A stretch of DNA of 20,000 nucleotides, from the IMG/VR virus record IMGVR_UViG_3300042350_001000; one strand, written 5' to 3'. Position 1 is the stretch's first letter; each line of letters starts with the position of its first letter. The notes under the pieces were generated by a model. That model saw only the letters and a list, made by a program, of their open reading frames with translations. It had not been told where the DNA came from and did no database searches. Made by a program: the position numbers and the translations under genes. Below, one piece after another: positions 1-14,785 of this stretch. This stretch comes from an uncultured virus (IMG/VR IMGVR_UViG_3300042350_001000). Its lineage: Duplodnaviria > Heunggongvirae > Uroviricota > Caudoviricetes.

Positions 1-54
1 GGCCGTGGCAGGGGGGTGACGAATCCCCTCTTCGGTAGCTAACCTAGCCATGCC
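1..54 (-). ncRNA. Putative structured RNA (three-way junction), C4/c4-2 antisense-RNA-like; may continue beyond the window edge
   Basis: Minus strand reads GGCAUGGC-UA-GGUUAGCUACC-GAAGA-GGGGAUUCGUCACCCC-CU-GCCACGGCC: a closing stem plus two hairpins. It starts about 7 nt downstream of a -10 box. The family resemblance is from recollection, not a covariance-model search. Confidence 0.55.
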
Positions 55-60
55 CTTTGA

Positions 61-89
61 ATGGTACTTAGTGTGTCGTTGGTTTGCAA
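61..89 (-). promoter_or_regulatory. Sigma70-type promoter for the structured RNA and downstream leftward genes
   Basis: Minus strand: TTGCAA (89-84), 17-bp spacer, TACCAT (66-61). Predicted +1 near 54 coincides with the start of the RNA stem. Confidence 0.65.
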
Positions 90-343
90 TCGGTCAAAGC
101 GACTCGGATTGCGTCGCTAATAGTGCTGACGATCTCCTCTAAACCCTTGTAACCACGGCGCTCGTACTCTTGCGTGCAATTTATCAACAGCATGTTCAAG
201 GCCGAATATTGAAAAACCATAGCTGCAAAATCGTCGCTCGTTGCCTTCGAAAGCTTTTCAATGTTCTCGAGCGTGCGGTCGATAAGCACATCGGCGTACT
301 GAACCACCTGCTGGTACTTCGCTTCTAAATTTTCAGCGGCCAT
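68..343 (-). CDS. Hypothetical protein (91 aa, predicted helical)
   Basis: ATG with purine-rich GAAGGGGG upstream; overlaps the 3' end of the Cro-like gene. Confidence 0.7.
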   Translation of the reverse strand: MAAENLEAKYQQVVQYADVLIDRTLENIEKLSKATSDDFAAMVFQYSALNMLLINCTQEYERRGYKGLEEIVSTISDAIRVALTDCKPTTH

Positions 344-504
344 ACAACCCCCTTCTCGTGTAGCCGCGGCATGAGCATCATGAGCCGATGCAGCGGGATC
401 TTCCCCGTTTTGATGTAGTGGTGGACCGTGCTTGGAGCCACCCCCAGGTACCGAGCGACTGCCCTGGTACCGCCTAGCGTTTTGATCATCTCTCTTGTAT
501 CCAT
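325..504 (-). CDS. Cro-like / YdaS-like helix-turn-helix regulator (59 aa)
   Basis: IKTLGGTRAVARYLGVAPSTVHHYIKTGKIP is a typical Cro-family HTH. ATG at 504 is preferred over TTG at 525 because a -10 box lies 6 nt upstream of 504. Confidence 0.8.
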   Translation of the reverse strand: MDTREMIKTLGGTRAVARYLGVAPSTVHHYIKTGKIPLHRLMMLMPRLHEKGVVWPLKI

Positions 505-507
505 GGC

Positions 508-524
508 GTTAGAGTAACCGAACA
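508..524. promoter_or_regulatory. Operator-like site TGTTCG-N6-CTAAC, copy 1, over the leftward -10
   Basis: Minus strand TGTTCG-GTTACT-CTAAC; same arms as 794-810. Confidence 0.6.
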
Positions 525-539
525 AAGAGGGTTACGCAA
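511..539 (-). promoter_or_regulatory. Leftward sigma70-type promoter (predicted leaderless cro-like transcript)
   Basis: Minus strand: TTGCGT (539-534), 17 bp, TACTCT (516-511), 6 nt, ATG (504). Confidence 0.65.
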
Positions 540-553
540 CCCAGGGTTTCAAC
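535..553. promoter_or_regulatory. 19-bp motif CGCAACCCAGGGTT(T/A)CAAC, copy 1
   Basis: 18/19 identical to 760-778; has the palindromic core AACCC-A-GGGTT and overlaps the leftward -35. Confidence 0.6.
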
Positions 554-576
554 GGTTGCGAATAAAGGCGAACATA

Positions 577-605
577 GGGGCGGACAGGGGGCGGACAGGG
601 TGGGG
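577..605 (+). repeat. 11-bp tandem repeat GGGGCGGACAG x2 inside a four-G-tract segment
   Basis: 577-587 and 588-598 are identical; G-tracts at 577-580, 587-591, 598-600 and 602-605. Confidence 0.7.
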
Positions 606-730
606 AGTATTAGGAGATCAATGTTCTAAACTGGATCATGACTTCTCCTATGAGAGACCGGCTAAAAGCGCATAATCGCAGTGGATTTGGCCTGAACAAT
701 GCGCGACTTTTCGGACCGGACTTTCTCGTT

Positions 731-760
731 AGTGTCCACTGGCGTCCAATAGCGTCCACC
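731..760 (+). repeat. 10-bp-periodic repeat with GYGTCCA core x3
   Basis: AGTGTCCACT / GGCGTCCAAT / AGCGTCCACC. Confidence 0.65.
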
Positions 761-778
761 GCAACCCAGGGTTACAAC
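760..778. promoter_or_regulatory. 19-bp motif CGCAACCCAGGGTT(T/A)CAAC, copy 2
   Basis: Matches 535-553; lies just upstream of the rightward -35 at 784. Confidence 0.6.
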
Positions 779-783
779 ACCGC

Positions 784-812
784 TTGACAAGGGTGTTCGA
801 TATATCTAACAT
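784..812 (+). promoter_or_regulatory. Rightward early sigma70-type promoter with overlapping palindromic operator (794-811)
   Basis: TTGACA (784-789), 17 bp, TAACAT (807-812). TGTTCGATA|TATCTAACA is an 18-bp palindrome with one mismatch. Confidence 0.8.
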
Positions 813-850
813 CTTCGATACGGCGTTTTGCCGTGAGAAAAGGAGAAACG

Positions 851-1012
851 ATGGAAGACGATTTTTGGTACCAGCAGCAAATGGAAGAACGTGAGCAACG
901 ATTGGAAGACGCTTACGAACGTGCCCGAGCAGGTCTTGCAGATGAAGAAGACTGGGCTGTTTTGCGTTACGAACTTGGACTACGAAAGGAAAGAGATGCT
1001 ACTCAAAGCTGA
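851..1012 (+). CDS. Small acidic hypothetical protein (53 aa, MEDDFWYQQQMEEREQ...), absent from the ORF track
   Basis: AGGAG RBS at 841-845, ATG 851, TGA 1010-1012; first ORF after the promoter. Confidence 0.8.
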   Translation: MEDDFWYQQQMEEREQRLEDAYERARAGLADEEDWAVLRYELGLRKERDATQS

Positions 1013-1628
1013 AGCTAATACCGGTTTTACACCCACCCCTCCAGGCGTCTACATGGGACGCTGCTACCGGATCATTGATCTCGGCACGCAAGAAACGACT
1101 TGGCAGGGCAAGATCAAACACCAGCGCAAGGTCCTGCTGTCCTGGGAGATCCATGGCGAGGACGATACTGGCAAACCCCTTTTAACGGACGATGGCAGGC
1201 CTTTGATGGCCAGCAAGCGGTTTACTGCCAGCCTCGGCGAAAAAGCGGCTCTACGGGCCTTTCTTGAGTCCTGGAGGGGCAGGCCCTTTAGCGACGCCGA
1301 ACTGAATGGCTTTGCTATCAAGTCGCTGCTTGGCCAGTGGGGCATGATCAACATCACCCAAGAGACTCGAGACGGCAAGACCTACTCGAACGTCGCAACC
1401 GTCATGCCGCTGCCACCAGCGCTTCGCAAGGTCCTGCCTGCTGGCCATAACGCACTCGGGATCTTCTCGATGGACCAGTTCGAGCCCGACATGATGGACC
1501 TCTTCAACAGCTTCGGCAAAGGCCTCCAGGACGTCATCAAGGCTTCGCCCGAGTGGGCCGCCTTGCATGAGCTTCCTGCTAAGCAGGCTACGTCTCTTGC
1601 TGATACTGACGACGACATTCCGTTTTAA
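996..1628 (+). CDS. Phage ssDNA-binding / replication protein (NGO0469-like), 210 aa
   Basis: GRCYRIIDLGTQ motif, L.EKA.LR.FLESWRG motif and acidic SSB-type C-terminal tail DTDDDIPF. ATG 996 with AAGGA RBS is preferred over GTG 891. Confidence 0.8.
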   Translation: MLLKAEANTGFTPTPPGVYMGRCYRIIDLGTQETTWQGKIKHQRKVLLSWEIHGEDDTGKPLLTDDGRPLMASKRFTASLGEKAALRAFLESWRGRPFSDAELNGFAIKSLLGQWGMINITQETRDGKTYSNVATVMPLPPALRKVLPAGHNALGIFSMDQFEPDMMDLFNSFGKGLQDVIKASPEWAALHELPAKQATSLADTDDDIPF

Positions 1629-1647
1629 TTTTAATTAAGGAAGACAC

Positions 1648-1869
1648 ATGGAAACCAAAATTATTCCTGCGGGTAGCCGCTTAGCCGAAAAGCATCTGAT
1701 GATCGCTTATCAGCGCGGTGATGTAATGGCCGTACCAAGCTTTAAGAAAGCTGATGTTTACGTCCTTCCCGGCCACATTGAGACGAGCGCTGAAGAGCTT
1801 GTATTCAACGGGTTTACCCCGAAGGTCACGCCCCTTTGGTCGCGCTTTTGGGTCGAGGTGCAGTCATGA
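1648..1869 (+). CDS. Hypothetical protein (73 aa)
   Basis: AAGGA RBS and ATG; ATGA overlap with the next gene. Confidence 0.75.
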   Translation: METKIIPAGSRLAEKHLMIAYQRGDVMAVPSFKKADVYVLPGHIETSAEELVFNGFTPKVTPLWSRFWVEVQS

Positions 1870-2159
1870 AAAAGCGCAAACCCATGAGCGAAGAGTCAAA
1901 GGCCAGGATCAGGGAAGGCGCTAAAAAGCGCTGGGCCGAATATCGGAGGATGAAAGAGTCTAAGACGACCATTCCCTACGAATTGTTCAAGCAGGCCCAA
2001 AACTTGGCCGCGGGGAAAAAGGAGGAGCCTGTGGCTTACATGCTGAAGGCCCCCGGTGGCGATCAGTTCCTGGTTACGAAGATCGGCGAACATTTCCGTA
2101 ATTTCTTGAAAGACAATGGCTTTGAGATTTGGGCCGTCAGTCTGTCGAAAAAGCTATGA
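1866..2159 (+). CDS. Hypothetical protein with N-terminal NUMOD3-like basic motif (97 aa)
   Basis: KRKPMSEESKARIREGAKKRW; ATGA overlaps at both ends; GAGG RBS. Confidence 0.7.
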   Translation: MKKRKPMSEESKARIREGAKKRWAEYRRMKESKTTIPYELFKQAQNLAAGKKEEPVAYMLKAPGGDQFLVTKIGEHFRNFLKDNGFEIWAVSLSKKL

Positions 2160-2905
2160 TCATCAATACCAAGACGGCCGAGTCTGGCCACTGGTATACC
2201 AAGGAGGGTAAGCCTGCTTACACCATTGTCGGGAGTAACGGCAAGGTGCGCAACACGACCCTCCGGGATGCCAAAAAGCTCAAGCTTTTGCCCTCAGTCA
2301 CGACGGTCATGTCGGTGGCTGCAAAGCCTGGATTGGAGGCCTGGAAGCAACAGCAGTTGCTTTTAGCGTCTCTTACCCTACCCAAGGGTGAGCAGGAGAG
2401 CCTCGAGGACTATGCCAAGCGAGTGCTCGAGGACTCCCGCAAGCAAACCAGGGATGCAGCCGACCGAGGTACGGCCATTCACGCTGAGATACAGGCCTTC
2501 TACGAGGGCGATCTCGAGAAGATGAATGTTCCATATGTCCGCAGGGCGGTTGGCGCCATACAGAGCCATTTTGGGGACCGGACGTGGATCTCTGAGGCGT
2601 CATTCGCTGCAACCCATGGCTACGGCGGGAAGGTCGATCTGCACTGCCATGACACGGTCATCGACATCAAGACCAAGGAGTTCGCTCCGGGCGACAAGGT
2701 GGCGCTGTTTGATGACCATTACATGCAGTTAGCGGCCTATGCGGTGGGGCTCAAGATCCACCCGCCCCGGTGCGCAAACGTGTTCGTTTCGGTTATCGAC
2801 CCTCACCCAGTCATTGTCCTGGAGCACGACCCCAAGGACATCCAGAGGGGCTGGGAAATGTTCCTGGCACTGCTTAACTTTTGGAAAATAAGGAGCAACG
2901 TATGA
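2156..2905 (+). CDS. PD-(D/E)XK family exonuclease (Cas4/RecB-like), 249 aa
   Basis: PSVTTV, RGTAIH, E, GKVDL, IDIKT and QLAAY motifs occur in the canonical order; ATGA-coupled start at 2156. Confidence 0.88.
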   Translation: MIINTKTAESGHWYTKEGKPAYTIVGSNGKVRNTTLRDAKKLKLLPSVTTVMSVAAKPGLEAWKQQQLLLASLTLPKGEQESLEDYAKRVLEDSRKQTRDAADRGTAIHAEIQAFYEGDLEKMNVPYVRRAVGAIQSHFGDRTWISEASFAATHGYGGKVDLHCHDTVIDIKTKEFAPGDKVALFDDHYMQLAAYAVGLKIHPPRCANVFVSVIDPHPVIVLEHDPKDIQRGWEMFLALLNFWKIRSNV

Positions 2906-3381
2906 GCATGGAAGAGAAGGTGGTGCGAAGCATCACGAAGACGCTGGATCAAATGAATATGGCCTATTTGGTATGCGGCGAACACGGTGAACTTATCAGC
3001 AACGACTTTCCAATTGAGGCGCTTATAAGGGCGCTTAAGGCCATGGAAGCCGATTTTGAAATTAGGTACCAAGGAGAGCATTACATCAACAAAGAGCGGT
3101 TTGGCCGCAATATGATTTACAAGGAATTGATTGACGTCTTCGCCGAAATCAAGCCTGGGGAAATGATCATGGTCAAAATCCCTGAGCACTTGGATTTTGA
3201 AAAGGCCAAGGCAAGTATCGTCAATCACTTTAGGCGCCGTTTTCACCCCACGGTAAACACGCACAAGGTAGGCAACTCGCCAGACGATCGCCGATTGCAG
3301 GTTTATGTTGCGCCAATAATCACCGAGGAGGAAAAGCCCCTCACCAAGTTCCAGGAGTTCATGGAGGAGCTTAAGCCATAG
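2902..3381 (+). CDS. Hypothetical protein (159 aa)
   Basis: AAGGAG RBS, ATGA overlap, followed by a terminator. Confidence 0.75.
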   Translation: MSMEEKVVRSITKTLDQMNMAYLVCGEHGELISNDFPIEALIRALKAMEADFEIRYQGEHYINKERFGRNMIYKELIDVFAEIKPGEMIMVKIPEHLDFEKAKASIVNHFRRRFHPTVNTHKVGNSPDDRRLQVYVAPIITEEEKPLTKFQEFMEELKP

Positions 3382-3414
3382 CCATTCATCGGTCTGACGA
3401 ACGGTAGCTGTTTT

Positions 3415-3435
3415 AGGGGGTTTATCCCCCTTTTT
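3415..3435 (+). terminator. Rho-independent terminator
   Basis: GGGGG-TTTAT-CCCCC followed by TTTTT, 34 nt after the stop at 3381. Confidence 0.7.
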
Positions 3436-3438
3436 CAT

Positions 3439-3467
3439 TTGACAGGTGGATAAATAAAGAGTCAAAT
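3439..3467 (+). promoter_or_regulatory. Second rightward promoter
   Basis: Perfect TTGACA (3439-3444), 17 bp, weak -10 TCAAAT. Followed by the same leader hairpin as the 784 promoter at nearly the same distance. Flanked by the inverted repeat ATTTGAC...GTCAAAT. Confidence 0.6.
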
Positions 3468-3507
3468 ACACCTACTGCGACGTGCAGTGAGAAACCGGAG
3501 AAACAGT

Positions 3508-3801
3508 ATGAAAAACGAAGCAGCAGTAATCGAAGCAGCAAGCATCGATCAACTCGGTGCCCTCTTGGCTCAGATCGCCGACCTGCAAAAGCAAGCCGAT
3601 GCAATCAAGGACGCAATCAAGGATTCGGCCTCGGCAGGTGGTGCTAAGTCGATCGAGGGTAGCCTCTTCAAGGCAACCTACATTGAGTCCGACCGCTCGG
3701 TGTTTGACAAGGCAGCCTTCGTTAAGGCTTTTGGTACCGAAGTGTACGAGCACTTCACCAAGACGACCGCCGTGTTCTCGGTCAAAGTCACCAGCCGCTA
3801 A
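3508..3801 (+). CDS. Hypothetical phage protein (97 aa, N-terminal coiled coil)
   Basis: GGAG RBS at 3497-3500; IDQLGALLAQIADLQKQADAIKDAIK heptad pattern. Confidence 0.85.
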   Translation: MKNEAAVIEAASIDQLGALLAQIADLQKQADAIKDAIKDSASAGGAKSIEGSLFKATYIESDRSVFDKAAFVKAFGTEVYEHFTKTTAVFSVKVTSR

Positions 3802-3814
3802 CCAGGATATTCAC

Positions 3815-4078
3815 ATGAAAAAAATCGCGCCAAAATCTTTGTATATCGGCCAACTGGTCGTTCTCAACAAGCACACTGAGGCTCAGGTCTACACGATTGC
3901 CGAGATCGAAGACTTTACGGTCACGCTTATGTGGTACGAGGGCAAGCGGCTTTGCGTGAATGTATGGGACTCAAGCCGCTTTTTTTACCCGGACCTCGAG
4001 CAGATCGAGTACAGCATCAACAGCAACGGCCGTCTCGCTACCGTCCGTGACCGCATGGAAGCACGTTTAACAGCTTAA
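3815..4078 (+). CDS. Hypothetical protein (87 aa, beta-rich)
   Basis: AGGA RBS and ATG 3815; the 5' extension to 3557 overlaps the upstream gene and is unlikely. Confidence 0.75.
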   Translation: MKKIAPKSLYIGQLVVLNKHTEAQVYTIAEIEDFTVTLMWYEGKRLCVNVWDSSRFFYPDLEQIEYSINSNGRLATVRDRMEARLTA

Positions 4079-4083
4079 TAACC

Positions 4084-4099
4084 GGGGGCTTCGGCCCCC
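4084..4099 (+). other. Stable intergenic hairpin with cUUCGg tetraloop and no U-tail
   Basis: GGGGGC-TTCG-GCCCCC, followed by TAACTAGGAG (RBS). Confidence 0.7.
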
Positions 4100-4115
4100 T
4101 AACTAGGAGAACATC

Positions 4116-4394
4116 ATGGAAGAGTTTCAAGCAATGGATAACGTCATAAGCCGCTTCTTCGGCAACACCACAACGCAAAGCAGAAAGCGCGAACCACGGG
4201 CGATGTACACGTCAATGTCGGTGCATAACATTGTGTCGGTCATCATTTCAAAGCCGGAGCTACTTGAGAAAGCAGACTGCCAAACCATGGACATTACCTT
4301 CGTTGCGGAGAATGGCGAACGGGTCCGAATCGTGATATTCGGCGACAACATCGACGTCGTAAGGAGTGAAAATGAAGATCCAAGTGCGGCATGA
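4116..4394 (+). CDS. Hypothetical protein (92 aa)
   Basis: AGGAG RBS and ATG. Confidence 0.7.
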   Translation: MEEFQAMDNVISRFFGNTTTQSRKREPRAMYTSMSVHNIVSVIISKPELLEKADCQTMDITFVAENGERVRIVIFGDNIDVVRSENEDPSAA

Positions 4395-4566
4395 CCCAAC
4401 CCCCCTGGACACGCGCTCGTATGACTGGCGTGCTGTTCAGGATGGTTACCAACAGGGTGATCGGATCGGCTGGGGGCGGACCAAGCTCCAGGCCATTCGA
4501 GACCTGCTTATCCAACTTGAGATGGACCCCGACACAAAGGTGTCGGTTAAGGAGATAAAGACATGA
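4372..4566 (+). CDS. Small hypothetical phage protein (64 aa)
   Basis: AAGGAG at 4361-4366, ATG 4372, ATGA overlap downstream. Confidence 0.75.
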   Translation: MKIQVRHDPTPLDTRSYDWRAVQDGYQQGDRIGWGRTKLQAIRDLLIQLEMDPDTKVSVKEIKT

Positions 4567-4919
4567 GCATGCCAGAGATCGTAAAGCGCACGATTCAGCA
4601 AGCCATCAAACTGCTTGATGCGTCAGGCGTTAAGTACAAAATTATTGACCTGGACGGGAATGAATTTGGTACGTTGACTGTTTCCAACCCTAAAAAGACA
4701 AACAAAAACTATGTACATCCGCCGGGAACGATGTTTCGTTACTACCATCCTTTAATAAAAAACATGCAGGTCGGTGATGTTGTGGTTATTGAGTCAGGTG
4801 AGTTTGCCCCCAAAAGCCTTCAAGGGGCGCTCACTTCATGGGCTACGGCACAGTGGGGAAAAGGGTCCTACAAGACCTGCATCATTGAGTCCAATATTGA
4901 AATTCTTCGCTGTGCATAG
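4563..4919 (+). CDS. Hypothetical protein (118 aa)
   Basis: AAGGAG RBS and ATGA overlap. Confidence 0.8.
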   Translation: MSMPEIVKRTIQQAIKLLDASGVKYKIIDLDGNEFGTLTVSNPKKTNKNYVHPPGTMFRYYHPLIKNMQVGDVVVIESGEFAPKSLQGALTSWATAQWGKGSYKTCIIESNIEILRCA

Positions 4920-4927
4920 GAGGGATC

Positions 4928-5137
4928 ATGGGAGAAATGAACCCCGGCCTTCGCGTGCGTGTCGGTAAGAAGCTTGGCATTCTTGAACACCTTCACCCCG
5001 ACGGGACCTGCGCAATCCGATTGATTACCGAAAACGAGTGGCCGTTTCCCGAGTGGGTTTACGTCCACCAGTCGCAAGTTAAACGAGCCTACCAACCAAA
5101 AAGGAACCTAGATGAGTACGAAGAAGCCCCCTACTGA
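4928..5137 (+). CDS. Hypothetical protein (69 aa, SH3-like beta pattern)
   Basis: GGAGG RBS and ATG. Confidence 0.75.
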   Translation: MGEMNPGLRVRVGKKLGILEHLHPDGTCAIRLITENEWPFPEWVYVHQSQVKRAYQPKRNLDEYEEAPY

Positions 5138-5306
5138 CCGGTTCGATATGTTCGCCGCTGCTGCCCTTCAAGGTTTGCTTGCCGGTGGCATATCGAACTA
5201 CAACAAACCCGACGGCAGCCCGATTGCCAGTCGAGCAGACCTTGCCGAAGTTTGCTTTTCCTACGCGAAATTTATGGTGGAACATGATCCAGATCAACTC
5301 AAATAG
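5112..5306 (+). CDS. Small phage protein with D.FAAAALQGLLA motif (64 aa)
   Basis: AAGGA RBS; the motif is familiar from small phage early proteins of unknown function. Confidence 0.75.
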   Translation: MSTKKPPTDRFDMFAAAALQGLLAGGISNYNKPDGSPIASRADLAEVCFSYAKFMVEHDPDQLK

Positions 5307-5445
5307 CAAGCAGGTGATTCTCGAGACCGAGACCTTCCCGGTCCAGTTCTTCGGGGGCTGGGACGAGGTCAACGAGTTCATCGACGCCCTTCAGAAAGTA
5401 GCCATGGAGACCTTTGGCAAGCCCTGGGAGAGCAATCATGGATGA
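5284..5445 (+). CDS. Hypothetical protein (53 aa, MIQINSNSKQVILETETF...)
   Basis: GGTGGA RBS and ATG 5284; fills the gap between neighbours. Confidence 0.65.
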   Translation: MIQINSNSKQVILETETFPVQFFGGWDEVNEFIDALQKVAMETFGKPWESNHG

Positions 5446-5782
5446 ACGGATATACGACTCCAGACCGAACGTGGTCGACCGCTGGAGGCAGTTTCCGCAG
5501 CCCCACGACCCCAAGCGAACTGAACCTCTTGTTTCACCGAACTTCACCCCACCATCGGAGGACCCGTACTATGTCAACAAATGGACAAAATTCCGCGAAG
5601 AAAACGCGACGGGCGCGTGGTTTGAGCGGCAGAGAATTGATCGACAACGTAGCGAAAGCGGAGCTATGGAGACTGAGGCAGATCGAGGTGATGTACTTCG
5701 CCCTGCAAATGGCGATCGTCGAGAAGACCGAGCTAAAAGACCGCATCGAAAAGCTTCAACCCGACCATCCGATGGAGCTTGA
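5438..5782 (+). CDS. Hypothetical protein (114 aa); 3' part overlaps the next gene
   Basis: GGAGAG RBS and ATG 5438; N-terminal half is Trp/Pro-containing and protein-like (WRQF...FTPPSEDPYYVNKW). Confidence 0.55.
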   Translation: MDERIYDSRPNVVDRWRQFPQPHDPKRTEPLVSPNFTPPSEDPYYVNKWTKFREENATGAWFERQRIDRQRSESGAMETEADRGDVLRPANGDRREDRAKRPHRKASTRPSDGA

Positions 5783-5834
5783 TCACATTATTCAGGACTA
5801 CATAAGCGAACGGGTCTCGAGAGTCGCGCATTGA
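5571..5834 (+). CDS. Hypothetical protein (87 aa, helical)
   Basis: GGAGG RBS at 5557-5561 and ATG 5571. Confidence 0.7.
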   Translation: MSTNGQNSAKKTRRARGLSGRELIDNVAKAELWRLRQIEVMYFALQMAIVEKTELKDRIEKLQPDHPMELDHIIQDYISERVSRVAH

Positions 5835-5986
5835 AGGATTACGACCCCTTTCCCGAGATTACAAAGGCGTACCAGGAAGCCAAGCTTGCCGTGCAAAAGA
5901 ACACCGACGTGGACTATGCACTACGCAAGCTTGCCCTAGTCGTGCTCGAACTTCGACTGCAAAAACAGAAAGAGAAAACGAAATGA
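5831..5986 (+). CDS. Hypothetical protein (51 aa, TTG start), absent from the ORF track
   Basis: TTGA overlap with the upstream stop and ATGA overlap with the downstream start; amphipathic helical sequence. Confidence 0.6.
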   Translation: MKDYDPFPEITKAYQEAKLAVQKNTDVDYALRKLALVVLELRLQKQKEKTK

Positions 5987-6267
5987 TGATTACCGTCGGG
6001 ATGTTCACCCGATCCTCGAGGGAGTGGTCGCTACTGACCGGCGTCCCCAGGACAACGATTGAGTACAGGGTCAATGCAGGCTGGGAGCCCGACCGACTCT
6101 TCGTTCGCAAGGACTGGGTACTCGAGGGCAATAAGCGCTGCACAAAGTGCCATGCCGTCAAACCCATCAAGGAGTTCTACAAGCGATCCGGCCGCCCAGG
6201 CCATTTAGCACACTGTAAGGAGTGCAGAAAGCATTATGGAAAAGTACGTTATCAGCAACGGGTATGA
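5983..6267 (+). CDS. Small HTH plus Cys4 zinc-finger protein (94 aa)
   Basis: REWSLLTGVPRTTIEYRVNAGW (HTH-like) followed by KRCTKC...EFYK...CKEC; no nuclease motif seen. Confidence 0.75.
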   Translation: MMITVGMFTRSSREWSLLTGVPRTTIEYRVNAGWEPDRLFVRKDWVLEGNKRCTKCHAVKPIKEFYKRSGRPGHLAHCKECRKHYGKVRYQQRV

Positions 6268-7033
6268 GGGGCTAGGCGACCGCCTGCAATGCCTATCTTA
6301 CTGCCTGGATTTCGCGCTCAAGCATAACCGCATACTCAAGGTTAACTGGCGCGACAAGGTGTGGGGCCACTGGTTTTATTCTTACTTCCACCTCGTGGAT
6401 GTCCCGTATACGGATGAAAAAATATCGCTTACCGGCAAGTCAGTATGGCCACCTATCTGGGAGGCTTTGGGCGATAAAAGCTCAGACGACTGGGTATATG
6501 ACATCAAGGAGGAAAAGCTTTCGCCAAGCGCTTATGACGTGATCGTGCACTCTGGTATTGGCTTCAGGGTTTGGAACATGCCACTGCTTTCAAGGCACCT
6601 ACGGGTCAGTTTTGAGATTGCAAACAAAGTCAAAAAGCATGACGTAGTTGTGCATTTGCGAGGGACCGACCGATACAACGAAGGATCAAGCCTGTTTGAT
6701 CTTTACGGCGAATCGGGCGACGCTTATGTCATAACCGATGACGCAAGACTTGCCCAGCAATGGGCCGAAATCAGCCCAGAATCGACGATCTCATGCGTAG
6801 GCATAGAAGGACATCGACCGGTCCACAAAACAAATCCAGAGAATACTTATGACCGCAATTCGAAAGCTATTGTTGACTTCATGACGATTGCCATAGCAGG
6901 CGAGGCTTATTCCAACAACCCGGAGAGCTTGTTCTTCAAAATGGCAAGGAGCCTTGGAACCCCGGAGCTTATGCTTACGCCCGCTCCGGAGGAAAAGACC
7001 AAGAGGGTCCGATACTTTATTCGGGGAGCGTGA
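6236..7033 (+). CDS. Glycosyltransferase of the alpha-1,2/1,6/O-fucosyltransferase superfamily (NodZ/GT23- or GT11-like), 265 aa
   Basis: N-terminal EGLGDRL...FALKHNRILKVNW, motif I VHLRGTD, motif II YVITDD, motif III DFMTIA...SLF; AAGGAG RBS. Confidence 0.72.
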   Translation: MEKYVISNGYEGLGDRLQCLSYCLDFALKHNRILKVNWRDKVWGHWFYSYFHLVDVPYTDEKISLTGKSVWPPIWEALGDKSSDDWVYDIKEEKLSPSAYDVIVHSGIGFRVWNMPLLSRHLRVSFEIANKVKKHDVVVHLRGTDRYNEGSSLFDLYGESGDAYVITDDARLAQQWAEISPESTISCVGIEGHRPVHKTNPENTYDRNSKAIVDFMTIAIAGEAYSNNPESLFFKMARSLGTPELMLTPAPEEKTKRVRYFIRGA

Positions 7034-8270
7034 TTGTCCGCTGGGGCTTATAGCGATCGTAAAGGTCAGTCAGAAACGGAACCGCCGCGGTCGTTGCAAG
7101 CCCAACCCCTCGCGTTAAGGGGTGGGGCACCAAGCCTGCAACGCCACCAAGGGCGCCGATCGCACTTAAAGCTGCGCCGGGCATATCGCCTTGCATGTAC
7201 CGGTCATAGGCGTCATAGGCCGAATAGCCTGCTCCTGCGCCGCCTAGAGTGCCTAATGCCGAGCCTTTGAATAACCCTGTCATCCTGCCGCCGGGACGCT
7301 CTACACGCTCAACGGGCAAGCCTTGACGAACCTCTCCCACGACGGGAGCATTCTTGGCGCGATCAATAAGCCGCTGGGAAAGCTGAGGGGACTCGTCAGG
7401 ACCCGCAATCCCGTAAAGCTTGGCCATCCTTCCTGAGATTCTACCTTGAGGCATAGCCCTTCGGTAATCGGTAGCTGCCTCAGAGACGGTTCCGACTCCA
7501 GGCTTTACATAGCCCGTGACCTTGCTGGCCCACTTTTCACCGGGGGTCATGCCTTGGGTTAGCTTTGCGAGATTCTGGTCCCTAGCGGCCCTCTGAGCCT
7601 CTTGGAAGGCATCAAAGCGCCTTTGCTGCATGCCACGCCTAAGATCCGCTCCAGCGCCGCTTAAAAGGGCTCCAGCAGGCGCTCCTACCGCGGCAGACAT
7701 GGCACGGCCAATGGCAGGGTCGTCGGGTTGATTGATCTGCATTTGATCGATCTGTTGGGCCAGCCTTCTTGCTTCAAGAGCCGCTTCGCTTTCGGCAGGT
7801 TCGCCTTCTTGGCTTGGCTGCGCGGCCGGTATGACACCGCCTTCAAGCTGCATCTTAAGCCTTCGTGCTTGGCCAACAGCGTCGAACGGATAAATCGCAT
7901 TGACTTGGTCGGCATAGTCCATGTTGGGCGGGTTGTCCATCTTGGCAAACCTTGGTCCGCCGTTATAACCGACCAAAGCTTTTCGGACGTCGCCGCCAGT
8001 AAGGTCGAGCATTTCCTTGAGGTACATGACCCCGCCACGGATGTTGTCGTCCATTTTCTTTGGGTTCACGCCTAGACCCTTAGCGGTGGCAGGCATAAGC
8101 TGCATGACGCCAATAGCGCCCTTATTGCTTTTCTGGGCCTGGGAGAATCCAGACTCGACTTGAGCAACAGCAAGGGCTAGTTGCGGATCAACGCCCTCCT
8201 GCTCAGCGGCCTTGATGACTTTATCGGCTATACGACGCTGGGACTCGTTAAGCTTTTCAAGATCGACCAT
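7017..8270 (-). CDS. Virion-associated lytic transglycosylase (SLT domain), probable ejection protein, 417 aa
   Basis: AQVESGF, GAIGVMQLMPATA, NIRGGVMYL and ALVGYNGG SLT motifs; Gly/Ala-rich hydrophobic C-terminus. Confidence 0.88.
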   Translation of the reverse strand: MVDLEKLNESQRRIADKVIKAAEQEGVDPQLALAVAQVESGFSQAQKSNKGAIGVMQLMPATAKGLGVNPKKMDDNIRGGVMYLKEMLDLTGGDVRKALVGYNGGPRFAKMDNPPNMDYADQVNAIYPFDAVGQARRLKMQLEGGVIPAAQPSQEGEPAESEAALEARRLAQQIDQMQINQPDDPAIGRAMSAAVGAPAGALLSGAGADLRRGMQQRRFDAFQEAQRAARDQNLAKLTQGMTPGEKWASKVTGYVKPGVGTVSEAATDYRRAMPQGRISGRMAKLYGIAGPDESPQLSQRLIDRAKNAPVVGEVRQGLPVERVERPGGRMTGLFKGSALGTLGGAGAGYSAYDAYDRYMQGDMPGAALSAIGALGGVAGLVPHPLTRGVGLATTAAVPFLTDLYDRYKPQRTITLPE

Positions 8271-11053: not shown

Positions 11054-14000
11054 TTACCTCGCGCTTTCTTTCAAGTATGCCAAGGGTGACTTAGCCTTTG
11101 GCGGAATTTTATTGACCGGTGCGGCACGCTTATGTTTACGGATTGCCTCACGCATCTTGTCGAGCTTTGCGGCGCCTTCCTTCGAAGAGCCGTCACCAAG
11201 TGCAGCAACAATATCGGCGTCCATCACATACTCGCCATCCGCTAACAGTGCGGGAATAAGGTCATCCTGACCGCCACCGGCACCGCCAACCGCATAACCC
11301 TGCATTCTCCTCGAATCCGGGGTGCCTGCAAAGCCATTGGTCTCGGCCATTTTCATCAATCCGCCCATGGCCTTTTGCTGGGGCTTTTCAGGTTGGCCGC
11401 CGGTCCTTGGCTGCTCACCCAAAAGCTCGTCAGCATCGACCTGCTCAAGCGCCCCCTTAACAGTCGTGGAGGGCTCCATCGCTCTTTGATCCTCTTCGGA
11501 TAAGTCGACCTTCGCGTTGGCAGCAATTTGCGAGATCAGCTTCTTGCTGATGCCCATCCTCATGAGGGTTTGTACCAAGCTCTCGGGGAGGTTGGAGATT
11601 GTCTTCTCTTTCATAACCGGCGCCGCCGCTAAAAAGGTTGGTGATAACGATGGGATGTTCTTAAAGCCTGCGTTGCCCGATACAGAGCCCGATGGGTAGT
11701 AACGACTTCCGCCGCCGCCATCTCCGGCGCCTCCTGAACCGCTACCAGACCCACTTCCGGAACCGCTGCCAGACCCCGATCCGCTGCCCGAACCGCTTCC
11801 TGAGCCCGATCCAGAGCCAGAGCCTGAACCGCTGCCCGACCCAGACCCACTTCCCGACCCTGAACCAGATCCGGAGCCAGACCCCGATCCGGAGCCGCTG
11901 CCGGAACCAGAGCCCGAACCTGATCCTGAACCCGAACCCGATCCTGAACCCGAACCCGATCCTGAACCCGAACCAGACCCACTACCTGAACCCGAACCAG
12001 ACCCACTACCTGAGCCCGATCCGGAGCCCGAACCGGAGCCCGAACCGGAGCCCGAACCGGAGCCCGAGCCACTGCCTGAACCCGAACCGGAACCAGAGCC
12101 TGAACCACTACCCGACCCGCTACCAGATCCACTACCTGAACCTGAGCCTGAACCAGAACCGCTGCCCGAGCCTGAGCCCGAACCGCTGCCCGAGCCCGAA
12201 CCACTTCCTGAACCACTTCCTGATCCAGAGCCCGACCCAGAGCCGCTACCAGTTCCTGTACCTGTATCTGTTCCAGTTCCCTCAGTCGGCTTTTCGGCTT
12301 CGCCGGTCTTAGTTTCACCAGCCTCGCCGGTCTTAGTTTCGCCGCCGGTTTCGGCATCGACCTTAACAGCGCCGTCCGTGCCGCCGGATGTAACTCCGCC
12401 GCTTCCGTCCGTAGCATCGCCACCCGCCGGACCGCCCGTTGGGGTACCTGTAGGACCGCCTGTCGGGGTACCCGTTGGGCCACCCGTTGGGGTACCTGTA
12501 GGACCGCCTGTCGGAGTGCCCGTTGGGTCACCTGTCGGGCTACCAGCAGTGCCGCCGCGAACGAGATTGCCGTCCTTGTCGAATGTAAACGAGCCGAGGA
12601 TGTTGTTAATCCTCTCGTCGCTAAGCCCACCAGCGCGACCAAGCTTAGCTATCTCGTTGCGATTGAAGACGGCGTTGGGATTATCGGCAAAGGTTTTGCC
12701 TACCGAAGCCTTTAAGGCGTCGTCAGACTGACCTGCAAGGTTTTGACCTTGCGGCTTTTGCGGACCCTCAACTTGACCTTGTTTCGCATCTTGATCCTGC
12801 TGAGATATGGGGCCGGTGATCTTTCCAATTTGGGCATCTATGCCACCGCTGCCCCCGCCACCTCCGCTACCACCACTACCGCCGCCACTACCGCCGCTTT
12901 CACCACCAGCGCCACCCTGTGAAGACAATCCGCCCTGGACTTGTTCACTGCTGGAGGTTTCCCCACCAGCAAGGCCGCCCCCAGGTTTTTCTGGGCCGGT
13001 GGTCTTTACCTCTTTTGGCTTCTCAATCCATGGGTAATCGTCAATCGGGACGTCTTCAAACTCCCGATATTTCGTAAACGGCCTGTCAACCACCGTGTCA
13101 GTGGCAAATTCGTTGTAAGGCGTGAAGGGGCGATCAGCCGTCTTGGTGAGGTCGAATTCGTTGTAAGACGTAAAGGGCTTATCAAGCTTTGTGGACGATA
13201 CGGTTAACGCTGGCGTCTTATCGGCATACAAGGGCTTGGTCTCATACTTTCCAATATCCTTTTGGAAGTCCTTGATGTAAGCCTGCTTATCAGCCTCGGT
13301 CCAATCAGAAACCGGTTTATTCGCATAATCAGGGACCGTGGTTGCGTAGTCCATAGTCCACGGAATATCAGCGCCAGGATTTTGTGCTTTTTGAAGGGCG
13401 GACCACAAGGCCGCGCCATGCGCACCAAGCACACTAGCGGCCGCTATACCTTGCTGAATGGCTGGTATCCCAAGAAGCGGGAGCGCAGCAACCTGCTCCC
13501 CTTTGGTTAAATCCAAGCCGCCTGCAAGGTCCAAGCCGCCAGCGCTTGCAATACTCGAAGCAAGATCCGAAGATATATCCGGATTGACATCGGAAGCCAA
13601 AGACAGTCCACCGGTCGCAGGAATTTGCGTCCCAGGCCCGCCAGTGACGTTGTACTCGTCAATAATATTTCGGCCTCCCATTGCGGAAGCCACGCCCTTC
13701 ATTCCGGCGGCAATAATGTCATAGGGGTTATCAGACTTTGCCGCGGTATAGGCCACGTTAAGTGCAGACCTAACGATCCCTGGATCAAGATTTAGCGAAG
13801 AAGCAATATTCCCAGCAGCCATATCGAGGCCGGTGCTTACCCCGTAGGAGGTAACGGCATTTTTGATAAGACTTTCTACATCGGCGCCGCCCATGGCTCG
13901 TAAGGCTGTCGATATACCTGCCGCTTGCAAGGGAGACAAACCGAGACCCGCTGCGCCACCGGTGACGACCATGGCGCCAAAATTAAGCAAGGGAGCGATT

Positions 14001-14785
14001 GACTTTTGAAACGAGCCTCGTTGATCTTGGCGAAGCTGAACGTCCAAAATGTTGCCGTCCTTGTCGACCGTAACCTCCTGGCCAAGGAGCGTCCCCTTGT
14101 TGCCGATGTCATGGGCATTCAGAAAGGCCGAATAGGTACCCGTATCTTCATAGATCGGATTGCCTTCGTTATCGGTGCCGACCTGCTTTCTTATCGGCGA
14201 AAATACCGAAGATGAGGTGGGCATAAGACCGCCCTCGCCCTCAAAGTAAGTCGGGTTTAGTGCGCTGTTAAGCTGGGTTGCAAGGTCCCCGGAAATGGTT
14301 TTACCAATCAACCCTTGGCCTTGCGCATAAAGTTGGTTGGCTATGTTTTGTGCATTAGCCGCATTGGTTGCGTCTTTGTTATACCCAAGGGCAAGCTGGT
14401 CAACCCCTACAAGATTTTGCATACCCGGAATGGTTGAGCCAGCAACAGAAAGCCCTCCCGATACCGTATCCTGACCAAGCGTTCTATTGGCCACCTCCCC
14501 AAGAACGTCCTGGGTTATGCTCGACAGTCCGCCAGCAGTCGAAGTATCAGGCTGTGAGACCGGAGCTAGTCCACCGGTCGGCTCTTTATAGGTGAGCCCA
14601 GCATTGCCGAAGTAACTGGAAACGTCGCCAGCCGTAAGGTTTGGGTTAACTGTTTGTGCAGCCCTCAAAATATCTGCTGAAGACAGCCCAAGCTCCTGAC
14701 CGCGGGTGGCCACCACGTTCGGATCATTAAGGTTGGCAAGAATGAACTCGCCTGCTTGTCTGTACTGGTCTTCAGTAAAGGCCAT
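11054..14785 (-). CDS. Large low-complexity virion-module protein (1243 aa) with (Gly-Ser)86 tract and C-terminal [17 protein letters not shown] domain
   Basis: Uninterrupted ORF; the C-terminal D.IPA.L.DGEYV..AD.V motif is familiar from phage virion proteins; sits between tail and ejection genes. Confidence 0.75.
11735..12250 (-). repeat. 516-bp degenerate hexamer repeat encoding (Gly-Ser)86
   Basis: 172 alternating Gly/Ser codons using all four Gly and all six Ser codons. Confidence 0.95.
12424..12545 (-). repeat. Repeat encoding (GGPTGTPT)n
   Basis: [74 protein letters not shown] is duplicated 48 bp apart. Confidence 0.85.

Follow-up and report, generated by a model that had tools for sequence, protein, structure and literature searches.

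An RNA hairpin that opens at the predicted transcription start is repeated in this phage and its relatives as one module of a promoter-hairpin-ribosome-site cassette. Both as a structure and as a cassette the element is well supported. Its function we infer: with a probability that we put slightly above even, the 5'-terminal stem shields early mRNAs from decay by RppH and RNase E, in cassettes that shuffle accessory genes. The window analysed here is the whole stretch of 20,000 nucleotides and belongs to G000, a virus record of 30,623 bases. Contigs of close relatives reach 58-59 kb, and the G000 record (30.6 kb) is therefore incomplete.

Results

Hairpin leaders in the window and the genome

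An earlier note had described a hairpin leader at both rightward promoters of the window, and this observation is real: both strings, copy A (819-849) and copy B (3473-3504), are present exactly as described. The copy A hairpin, ACGGC-GTTTT-GCCGT (820-834, plus strand; stem arms 820-824 and 830-834), starts 36 nt after the TTGACA at 784, and the copy B hairpin, ACTGC-GACGT-GCAGT (3474-3488, plus strand; arms 3474-3478 and 3484-3488), 35 nt after the TTGACA at 3439. The predicted +1 positions are A820, 8 nt after the -10 box, and A3474, 7 nt after it, each with a T before it. Outside the window, on the minus strand of the genome (G000:C1 3734-3720), there is a third copy, ACAGC-AAGTC-GCTGT-GAGAAA-CA-GGAGAAAC, with A-T at the variable pair, an A...C loop and no TTGACA.

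The pattern given in the note has exactly two matches in the window at up to three mismatches, compared with a mean of 0.21 in shuffled sequences, 3 of 200 of which reach two; this count is not independent, as the pattern was derived from copies A and B themselves. In the G000 genome there are three hairpin copies, against none in 300 shuffles. A covariance model (R1) made from the leaders of 22 relatives scored the three copies at 34.6-38 bits and nothing else above 11.2 bits; being built from close relatives, it favours known forms. The motif search and covariance model proposed in the note thus returned further copies and covariation in relatives, and no fourth copy in G000. Folding of the hairpins alone is weak (copy A, -8.4 kcal/mol, z -2.4; copy B, -6.9 kcal/mol, z -1.3), and with flanks the z-scores are -0.7 and +0.1, respectively. 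An Rfam scan of window positions 1-7100 down to an E-value of 10 gave no match at copy A or B, a scan which an element this short could escape. Contigs from RNA runs start near copy A at 842, 849 and 860 and near copy B at 3461 and 3517, and one spans the promoter (759-3083); these data come from 4 of 24 listed runs, all as contigs, and can neither map a start nor show transcription.

Promoters, terminator and first genes

Promoter A (784-812, plus strand) matches the consensus at 10 of 12 positions, with a -35 box TTGACA at 784-789, a 17-nt spacer and a -10 box TAACAT at 807-812. Relatives keep this predicted promoter at the orthologous position whether or not they have the hairpin. Promoter B (3439-3467, plus strand), read from the sequence and its orthologues, has TTGACA at 3439-3444, 17 nt and a non-canonical -10 hexamer, TCAAAT, at 3462-3467. 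Our promoter scan called only the promoter at 784 and missed promoter B because its hexamer, 17 nt after TTGACA, has no A at the second position. At the same place, the orthologous leaders of more distant relatives carry TAAGAT, TAACAT or CAATAT. By eye, an AT-rich stretch upstream of the -35 box is absent at A, and a T-run is found at B. We also observed that -10 hexamers without the second-position A (TCAAAT, TCTAAT, TGTAAT) recur, at window positions 3462-3467 and in promoter classes C and D and locus L049; in B, D and L049 a 17-nt spacer separates them from TTGACA, and C too has TGTAAT.

A putative terminator, a PeSL-like hairpin with a T-run (3415-3438, plus strand), ends operon A and adjoins the -35 box of promoter B without a gap; the hairpin proper occupies 3415-3431 and its T-run reaches the box. 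Its arms covary in relatives (GGGGGTTTATCCCCC vs GGGGCTTATGCCCC).

In copy A the tail (835-853, plus strand) reads GAGAAA, an SD-like GGAG at 842-845 and ATG at 851, which opens a 53-aa acidic ORF heading an SSB-like/PD-(D/E)XK nuclease operon. The label SSB-like is our assumption from a DDIPF tail; no family search gave it. The copy B tail (3489-3510, plus strand) has GAGAAA, GGAG at 3497-3500 and ATG at 3508, the start of a conserved 97-aa phage protein with no known function (the 3508-3801 gene family). GGAG followed by ATG is present in all three G000 copies. Operon A runs rightward, divergent from a cro/MerR-like HTH gene (325-504), and contains a PD-(D/E)XK-type nuclease, and copy B heads a run of small genes without known function. 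Searches of Pfam, PHROGs and Atlas gave no function for the first gene of unit A or unit B.

Several other sequences around these promoters were recorded. Just after the -35 box, promoters B and D carry the word GTGGAT(A/T)AA or GTGGACTAA (window 3446-3454; L224-L250, L328, L363), and the TTGACA-less promoter C of the third G000 cassette has two copies of GGATAAA at a distance of 22 nt; these words could be an activator box, and may resemble a DnaA box. A palindrome, GCAACCC-A-GGGTT(T/A)C, lies at 536-550 and 761-775, each copy just upstream of or overlapping the -35 box of the divergent promoters; it is also found at promoter A of relatives L194 and L237 and is replaced in others. It is likely the operator of the cro-like protein. 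On the minus strand, by eye, TTGCGT-17-TACTCT and a 6-nt gap precede the ATG of the cro-like gene at 504 (539-504), whose mRNA is possibly leaderless. Within the first operon, a 97-aa ORF with a strongly basic N-terminus (1866-2159, plus strand), for which PHROG and Pfam gave no match, is a possible nucleic-acid binder. Elsewhere in the window, positions 2-54 (minus strand) match Rfam int-alpA weakly (27.8 bits, gathering threshold 35.8, E 0.013); the match lies some 40 nt upstream of an ORF (G000 9197-8505, minus strand). Positions 11054-14785 (minus strand) encode a 1243-aa protein in the virion region that contains both GGPTGTPT repeats and a Gly-Ser repeat of great length.

Relatives and host

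Ten loci of close relatives were retrieved via the 996-1628 protein and 54 stretches via the pattern, with one to four hairpin copies per locus. These copies belong to four promoter classes, stand before different genes and have variable loops of 5 or 6 nt. In viral contigs, the exact pattern of the note matched 25 stretches; close relatives account for 16, and the other 9, in unrelated contexts, have the look of chance matches. Limnohabitans phage DC33 encodes a 67% homologue of the 97-aa copy B protein; it has this downstream gene, and no copy of the hairpin element was found in it. The copy B gene also occurs in three contigs of Polynucleobacter and Limnohabitans MAGs, one of which (L378) shares gene order with G000 and encodes a 46% identical homologue of the 996-1628 protein. 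These matches hint at a host of the Limnohabitans/Polynucleobacter type. A search for the 16S 3' end in two host-like MAGs, both incomplete, bearing on whether GAGAAA extends the SD, gave no match in either (0/2).

The hairpin keeps a fixed distance from the -10 box

The copy B gene family has 1391 homologues, and an alignment of 41 was used to fetch loci with no motif filter. The homology-anchored set comprised 160 loci: from 387 viral and 483 metagenome hits we took the best 80 each. These gave 95 distinct leaders, 94 of them long enough; 80 scored at least 6 bits for a promoter under approximate sigma-70 weights. In 66 of these 80 leaders the first paired base falls 6-9 nt after the -10 box, compared with 24.6 expected from shuffles, and the mean folding z of the set is -1.5. 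The remainder includes some wrong promoter picks and some real absences of the hairpin (L294, L345). In a promoter-anchored scan of 142 distinct promoter-SD-ORF sites, an early hairpin was found in 43 of 49 sites of the copy B gene family and in 58 of 93 others, a denominator that includes false promoters; 31 of those 58 share the apex and precede many unrelated genes.

The converse search started from the hairpin. A pattern for the long form of the hairpin alone matched at least 130 loci, with 87 distinct contexts among the matches listed. Among these, a TAnnnT box precedes the A in 85, with its end 7 nt away in 82 and 8 nt away in three, and 84 have C-A-C at -1, +1 and +2, followed by 40 distinct N-terminal heptamers. 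By comparison, then, these data strongly support placing the hairpin at the predicted +1/+2. Hairpins of unrelated sequence occupy the same place in L049, L216, L332 and L369, as does a second loop type. This second type of +1 hairpin was seen in the same arrays of distant relatives (L252, L261, L265, L268, L293, L318, L373) and has an outer GCAC/GTGC-like stem, a bulge and an A-N-Y-Y-C loop.

At promoter A the hairpin is less widespread. Among 26 distinct orthologous leaders, from 62 hits of which the rest were duplicates or had no detected first gene, it is present in six, each from a close relative, whereas the 20 leaders of distant relatives lack it; L237 and L224 have hairpin-less orthologues of promoter A. 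The hairpin is therefore dispensable there, and copy A looks like a lineage-specific gain.

Stem covariation and a conserved apex

We aligned 23 short-form hairpins, which are 26 script picks minus three non-hairpin rows; window copy B was put in for one of the others. At the variable pair we counted A-U in 11, G-C in six and U-A in six, with none broken, and the next pair is C-G in 20 and U-A in three; the loop-closing position is G.U in four of the 23. The long form (16 of 35 rows, the ACA internal-loop class) shows C-G/U-A exchanges at two outer pairs. Rows of both alignments were chosen for a GC/GC apex, so that its invariance there is by construction, and kinship inflates the counts. Covariation, together with the further copies in relatives, bears out the proposal that a hairpin at the predicted +1 acts in cis as RNA. 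That the spacing varies, the arms covary and the long form has internal loops argues for an element of RNA and not for a DNA operator.

Loops are 4-7 nt long, and positions after the second vary freely. They start with A or G, mostly AA, a purine being required by the pattern itself. The 48 hairpins have 30 distinct loops: 17 A...C, six A...T, four A...A and three G...T. The G...T loop that the note regarded as a defining feature is therefore a minority form, and the third G000 copy is itself A...C. All three G-first loops end in T and all 17 C-last loops start with A. We considered an isosteric G.U/A.C closing pair; since A...T and A...A loops also occur, this is only suggestive.

A paired GC-R...GC apex was found by pattern in 65 of the 80 homology-anchored leaders. 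It is present in 21 of 27 gene lineages, a count of related sequences and not of independent events, in which fourfold-degenerate sites retain 0.44 identity against 0.31 at saturation. In the long form just 2 bp make up the apex stem, on top of a 3x3 internal loop; marginal as this fold is, it is still kept. By energy, GC ties with CC and GG as the inner stem, and other loop ends would be more stable. Given loops that are not the most stable and a GC stem that is only tied, stability alone fails to explain the conserved apex. That it persists despite strongly diverged silent sites leaves room for recognition by a protein.

Tail and ribosome site

The note had counted the GAGAAA tail as part of the element. 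In other lineages GAGAAA is replaced by AGCAAA or AGCGAA, spellings that also precede internal genes and hairpin-less leaders. A scan for TTGACA...GAGAAA...GGAGAA returned at least 124 matches, and among those listed 17 distinct contexts outside the gene family had a -10 box and an ATG; a +1 hairpin was present in two and missing from 15, a rough control given that many are AT-rich. The tail thus reads as a lineage-specific spelling of the ribosome site. A translational enhancer, also suggested in the note, gained nothing from folding: predicted SD accessibility with vs without the hairpin was 0.54 vs 0.67 for copy A and 0.91 vs 0.93 for copy B, that is, the hairpin did not raise it. In a distant lineage (L252-L295 and the long-form loci), many leaders have no GGAG and carry GAAAG or AAGG and then AGCGAA before the ATG; these leaders may pair with a different part of the host 16S end.

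Cassettes and gene shuffling

The first reading of the window overlooked a repeated promoter-hairpin-RBS cassette, associated with gene shuffling, to which the hairpin belongs. The modules of the cassette are an optional upstream terminator, the -35 and -10 boxes, the +1 hairpin, a purine tail, the SD and the ATG. The leftward array reads C-MQTAS in G000 and C-MATFK-D-MQTAS, C-MQTAS-D-MIDLK or C-MQTTR..D-MQTAS-D-MIDLK in relatives. Promoter class, hairpin type, spacer and gene occur in 24 combinations, with junctions between the -10 box and the hairpin, in the tail or at the ATG. Hairpin types cross promoter classes, with a D-type loop at promoter A and a C-type hairpin at promoter D. Such combinations are the outcome that homologous exchange between cassettes would be expected to give.

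Traces of cassettes were also seen. At 4084-4099 a GGGGGC-UUCG-GCCCCC hairpin stands directly before an SD, with neither T-run nor promoter, and may be a cassette remnant; a near-identical sequence is the terminator before class D promoters in relatives. The MQTAS start of L155 (minus strand) is fused to the next gene, and in L159 (minus strand) a cassette without promoter has left a broken hairpin behind a terminator.

Discussion

These data allow us to propose a mechanism. A host sigma-70-type RNA polymerase would make early transcripts that carry the hairpin, folded in vivo, as a 5'-terminal stem-loop. Transcription would start, most likely, at the A that opens the stem, and leave a 5' triphosphate end with 0-1 unpaired bases and a pyrimidine at +2. 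This geometry would give RppH and 5'-end-dependent RNase E the least access, so that the early mRNA would last longer, and the purine-rich single-stranded stretch would keep the ribosome site open. Recombination between cassette copies would swap, insert and delete accessory genes, as with the PeSLs of T4-like phages.

Pyrimidine-purine starts are common at any promoter. Having examined 164 leaders, of which 25 had no hairpin and 14 no such start, we found 0-1 unpaired 5' bases in 99 of 125 hairpin leaders and Y-A-Y in 98 of 119; the +1 was picked by a pyrimidine-purine rule at 6-9 nt, which leans the unpaired-base count toward this result. The predicted pairing of the first base is only 0.53-0.56 and the stems are weak. 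[quoted passage not shown] Judged by the 0-1 unpaired bases and the needs of RppH, a 5' stabiliser is the best fit among the functions that the note had offered. Such protection fails to explain the conserved apex, and protein recognition may therefore exist beside it and add to it.

Stabilisers of the ompA and papA type depend on structure and not on sequence. By prediction, the leaders described here resemble them in a stem that opens at base 1 or 2, a pyrimidine at +2 and an open ribosome site (PMC8833179; work on ompA and papA is in the references of PMC3997798), and differ in being repeated across phage early promoters, with a weak 5-bp stem and a kept GC-R...GC apex. On the question of structure or sequence our element points both ways: the outer stem covaries and unrelated stems occur, yet the apex is retained in most lineages.

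In layout, the cassette is a variant of known promoter/stem-loop/SD cassettes, with an added hairpin inside the transcript that, by its sequence, is not a terminator. The PeSLs of T4-like phages RB49/phi1, PST and nt-1 are described as a promoter, a terminator stem-loop, an SD and a start codon (PMC2839356, PMC4122927). As far as those descriptions extend, the likeness lies in a repeated sigma-70-like promoter (by consensus) with SD and ATG before small genes in a variable region, and in gene gain, loss and exchange between copies, seen here as cassette-boundary indels among close relatives. Copy B and class D of the relatives also have a terminator directly upstream of the -35 box, as in PST and nt-1; that feature is present at B (3415-3438) and in class D, is absent at A and was not seen at C. 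In PeSLs the stem-loop is described as a terminator that coincides with the start site or precedes it, whereas here a second hairpin lies in the transcript at the predicted +1, followed by purines and no U-run, and occurs also in cassettes without an upstream terminator (A, C). Nor are these phages T4-like, with close relatives of 58-59 kb against 160-240 kb. The SAS/ESAS elements of Cluster K mycobacteriophages, which in the report cited have no known function, share a repeated start-associated SD with conserved bases and, in some copies, an upstream inverted repeat with a variable spacer; the ESAS arms are 17-bp imperfect repeats of fixed consensus, whereas the arms here are 5-6 bp, covary and keep a fixed distance from the -10 box (PMC3203893). 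A literature search found no publication describing the element. In the part of the supplements of the phage RNA catalogue PMC10690425 that was searched, the motif strings are absent; the catalogue may already contain the element elsewhere.

The conserved apex invites another explanation, which we consider possible though improbable on balance: that the two G-C/C-G pairs closing a purine-first loop are bound by a protein, of phage or host origin, which puts these early transcripts under joint control by activation, protection or later shut-off, the outer stem only presenting the apex. Such a site could coexist with 5'-end protection. It would account for an apex kept in leaders and lineages whose fourfold sites have diverged, for the marginal 2-bp apex of the long form, and for loops that are purine-first, by demand of the pattern, and mostly AA without being optimal in energy. 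Against it, loop length varies between 4 and 7 nt with free positions after the second, hairpins without the apex and leaders without a hairpin occur in the same genomes, Pfam and PHROGs searches of the genes found no candidate RNA-binding protein, and GC/GC is in any case among the three most stable inner stacks. We put forward with the same reserve the wider proposal that a large freshwater phage family, probably with Limnohabitans/Polynucleobacter-type hosts, tags the 5' ends of mRNAs from its shuffled early genes with a sequence-specific RNA fold read by a phage or host protein, giving one post-transcriptional switch over its accessory genes; the fold would consist of the GC/GC apex and purine-first loop, to which distant members add a conserved 3x3 internal loop. 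It is unlikely that the hairpin is nearly functionless and merely carried along by duplication and recombinational homogenising of whole promoter-leader cassettes. Movement of hairpin types between promoter classes and the apparent gain of copy A would fit such a passenger, but selection is indicated by compensatory changes that affect four different pairs, by stems of unrelated sequence in one and the same place and by retention across lineages with diverged silent sites.

Early transcripts of lambda, P22 and phi21 (boxB) and of HK022 (put) carry short hairpins near their start. In boxB/nut a fixed loop is read by an N-like protein with a boxA upstream, and put consists of two long hairpins. 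The boxB-like antitermination site raised in the note, for read-through of terminators such as 3415-3438, agrees with the lambdoid-like layout, in which a small hairpin closely follows the early promoters and a cro-like gene is divergent, and with a terminator between units A and B. We nevertheless hold it to be very unlikely. That terminator is fused to a new promoter, which makes read-through unneeded, and each unit has its own; the loop is fixed in neither sequence nor length; a hairpin at +1 leaves no room for an upstream boxA, and neither a boxA nor an N-like protein was found; there is one 15-nt hairpin rather than two long ones; the orthologous operon A has no hairpin in 20 of 26 leaders; and Rfam gave no match in window 1-7100. 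An idea with still less to commend it is an operator in double-stranded DNA, a palindrome spanning the start site to which the cro-like protein or some other regulator would bind. Dyad symmetry, a fixed GC core over +1 and the HTH gene at 325-504 are in its favour, but the half-site spacing varies by up to 3 nt, the arms covary and the long form has internal loops; the fixed-spacing palindrome at 536-550 and 761-775 is a better candidate. That a DNA hairpin serves here as a promoter of the N4 type, or as a site for site-specific recombination, is barely credible, for all that short inverted repeats do lie at transcription starts and gene-swap junctions. The hairpins of N4 virion-RNAP promoters are described as lying upstream of +1 with a fixed 3-nt loop (PMC4496689); ours is downstream of a -35/-10 promoter, boxes that N4 virion-RNAP promoters are not known to have, and its loop is 4-7 nt long. 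The junctions fall at different positions, which argues against a recombination site, although, the 30.6-kb record being incomplete, a polymerase or recombinase gene may lie outside it.

Protection of the 5' end thus remains our preferred account of the hairpin. Protection of phage early mRNA from RppH was listed as not investigated in a 2010 review of T4 (PMC3014915), and the orthologous promoters with and without the hairpin would provide a natural control for it. Should the apex bind a protein, the element would define a new RNA-level regulon. In freshwater viromes the element is widespread, and because it flags early promoters and arrays of accessory genes in phages of uncultured or rarely cultured hosts, it can serve as an annotation handle. 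For the phages themselves, it would mean that small genomes can build portable, pre-wired units in which promoter, protected 5' end and ribosome site travel together, such that a gene newly inserted behind a cassette would be expressed at once.
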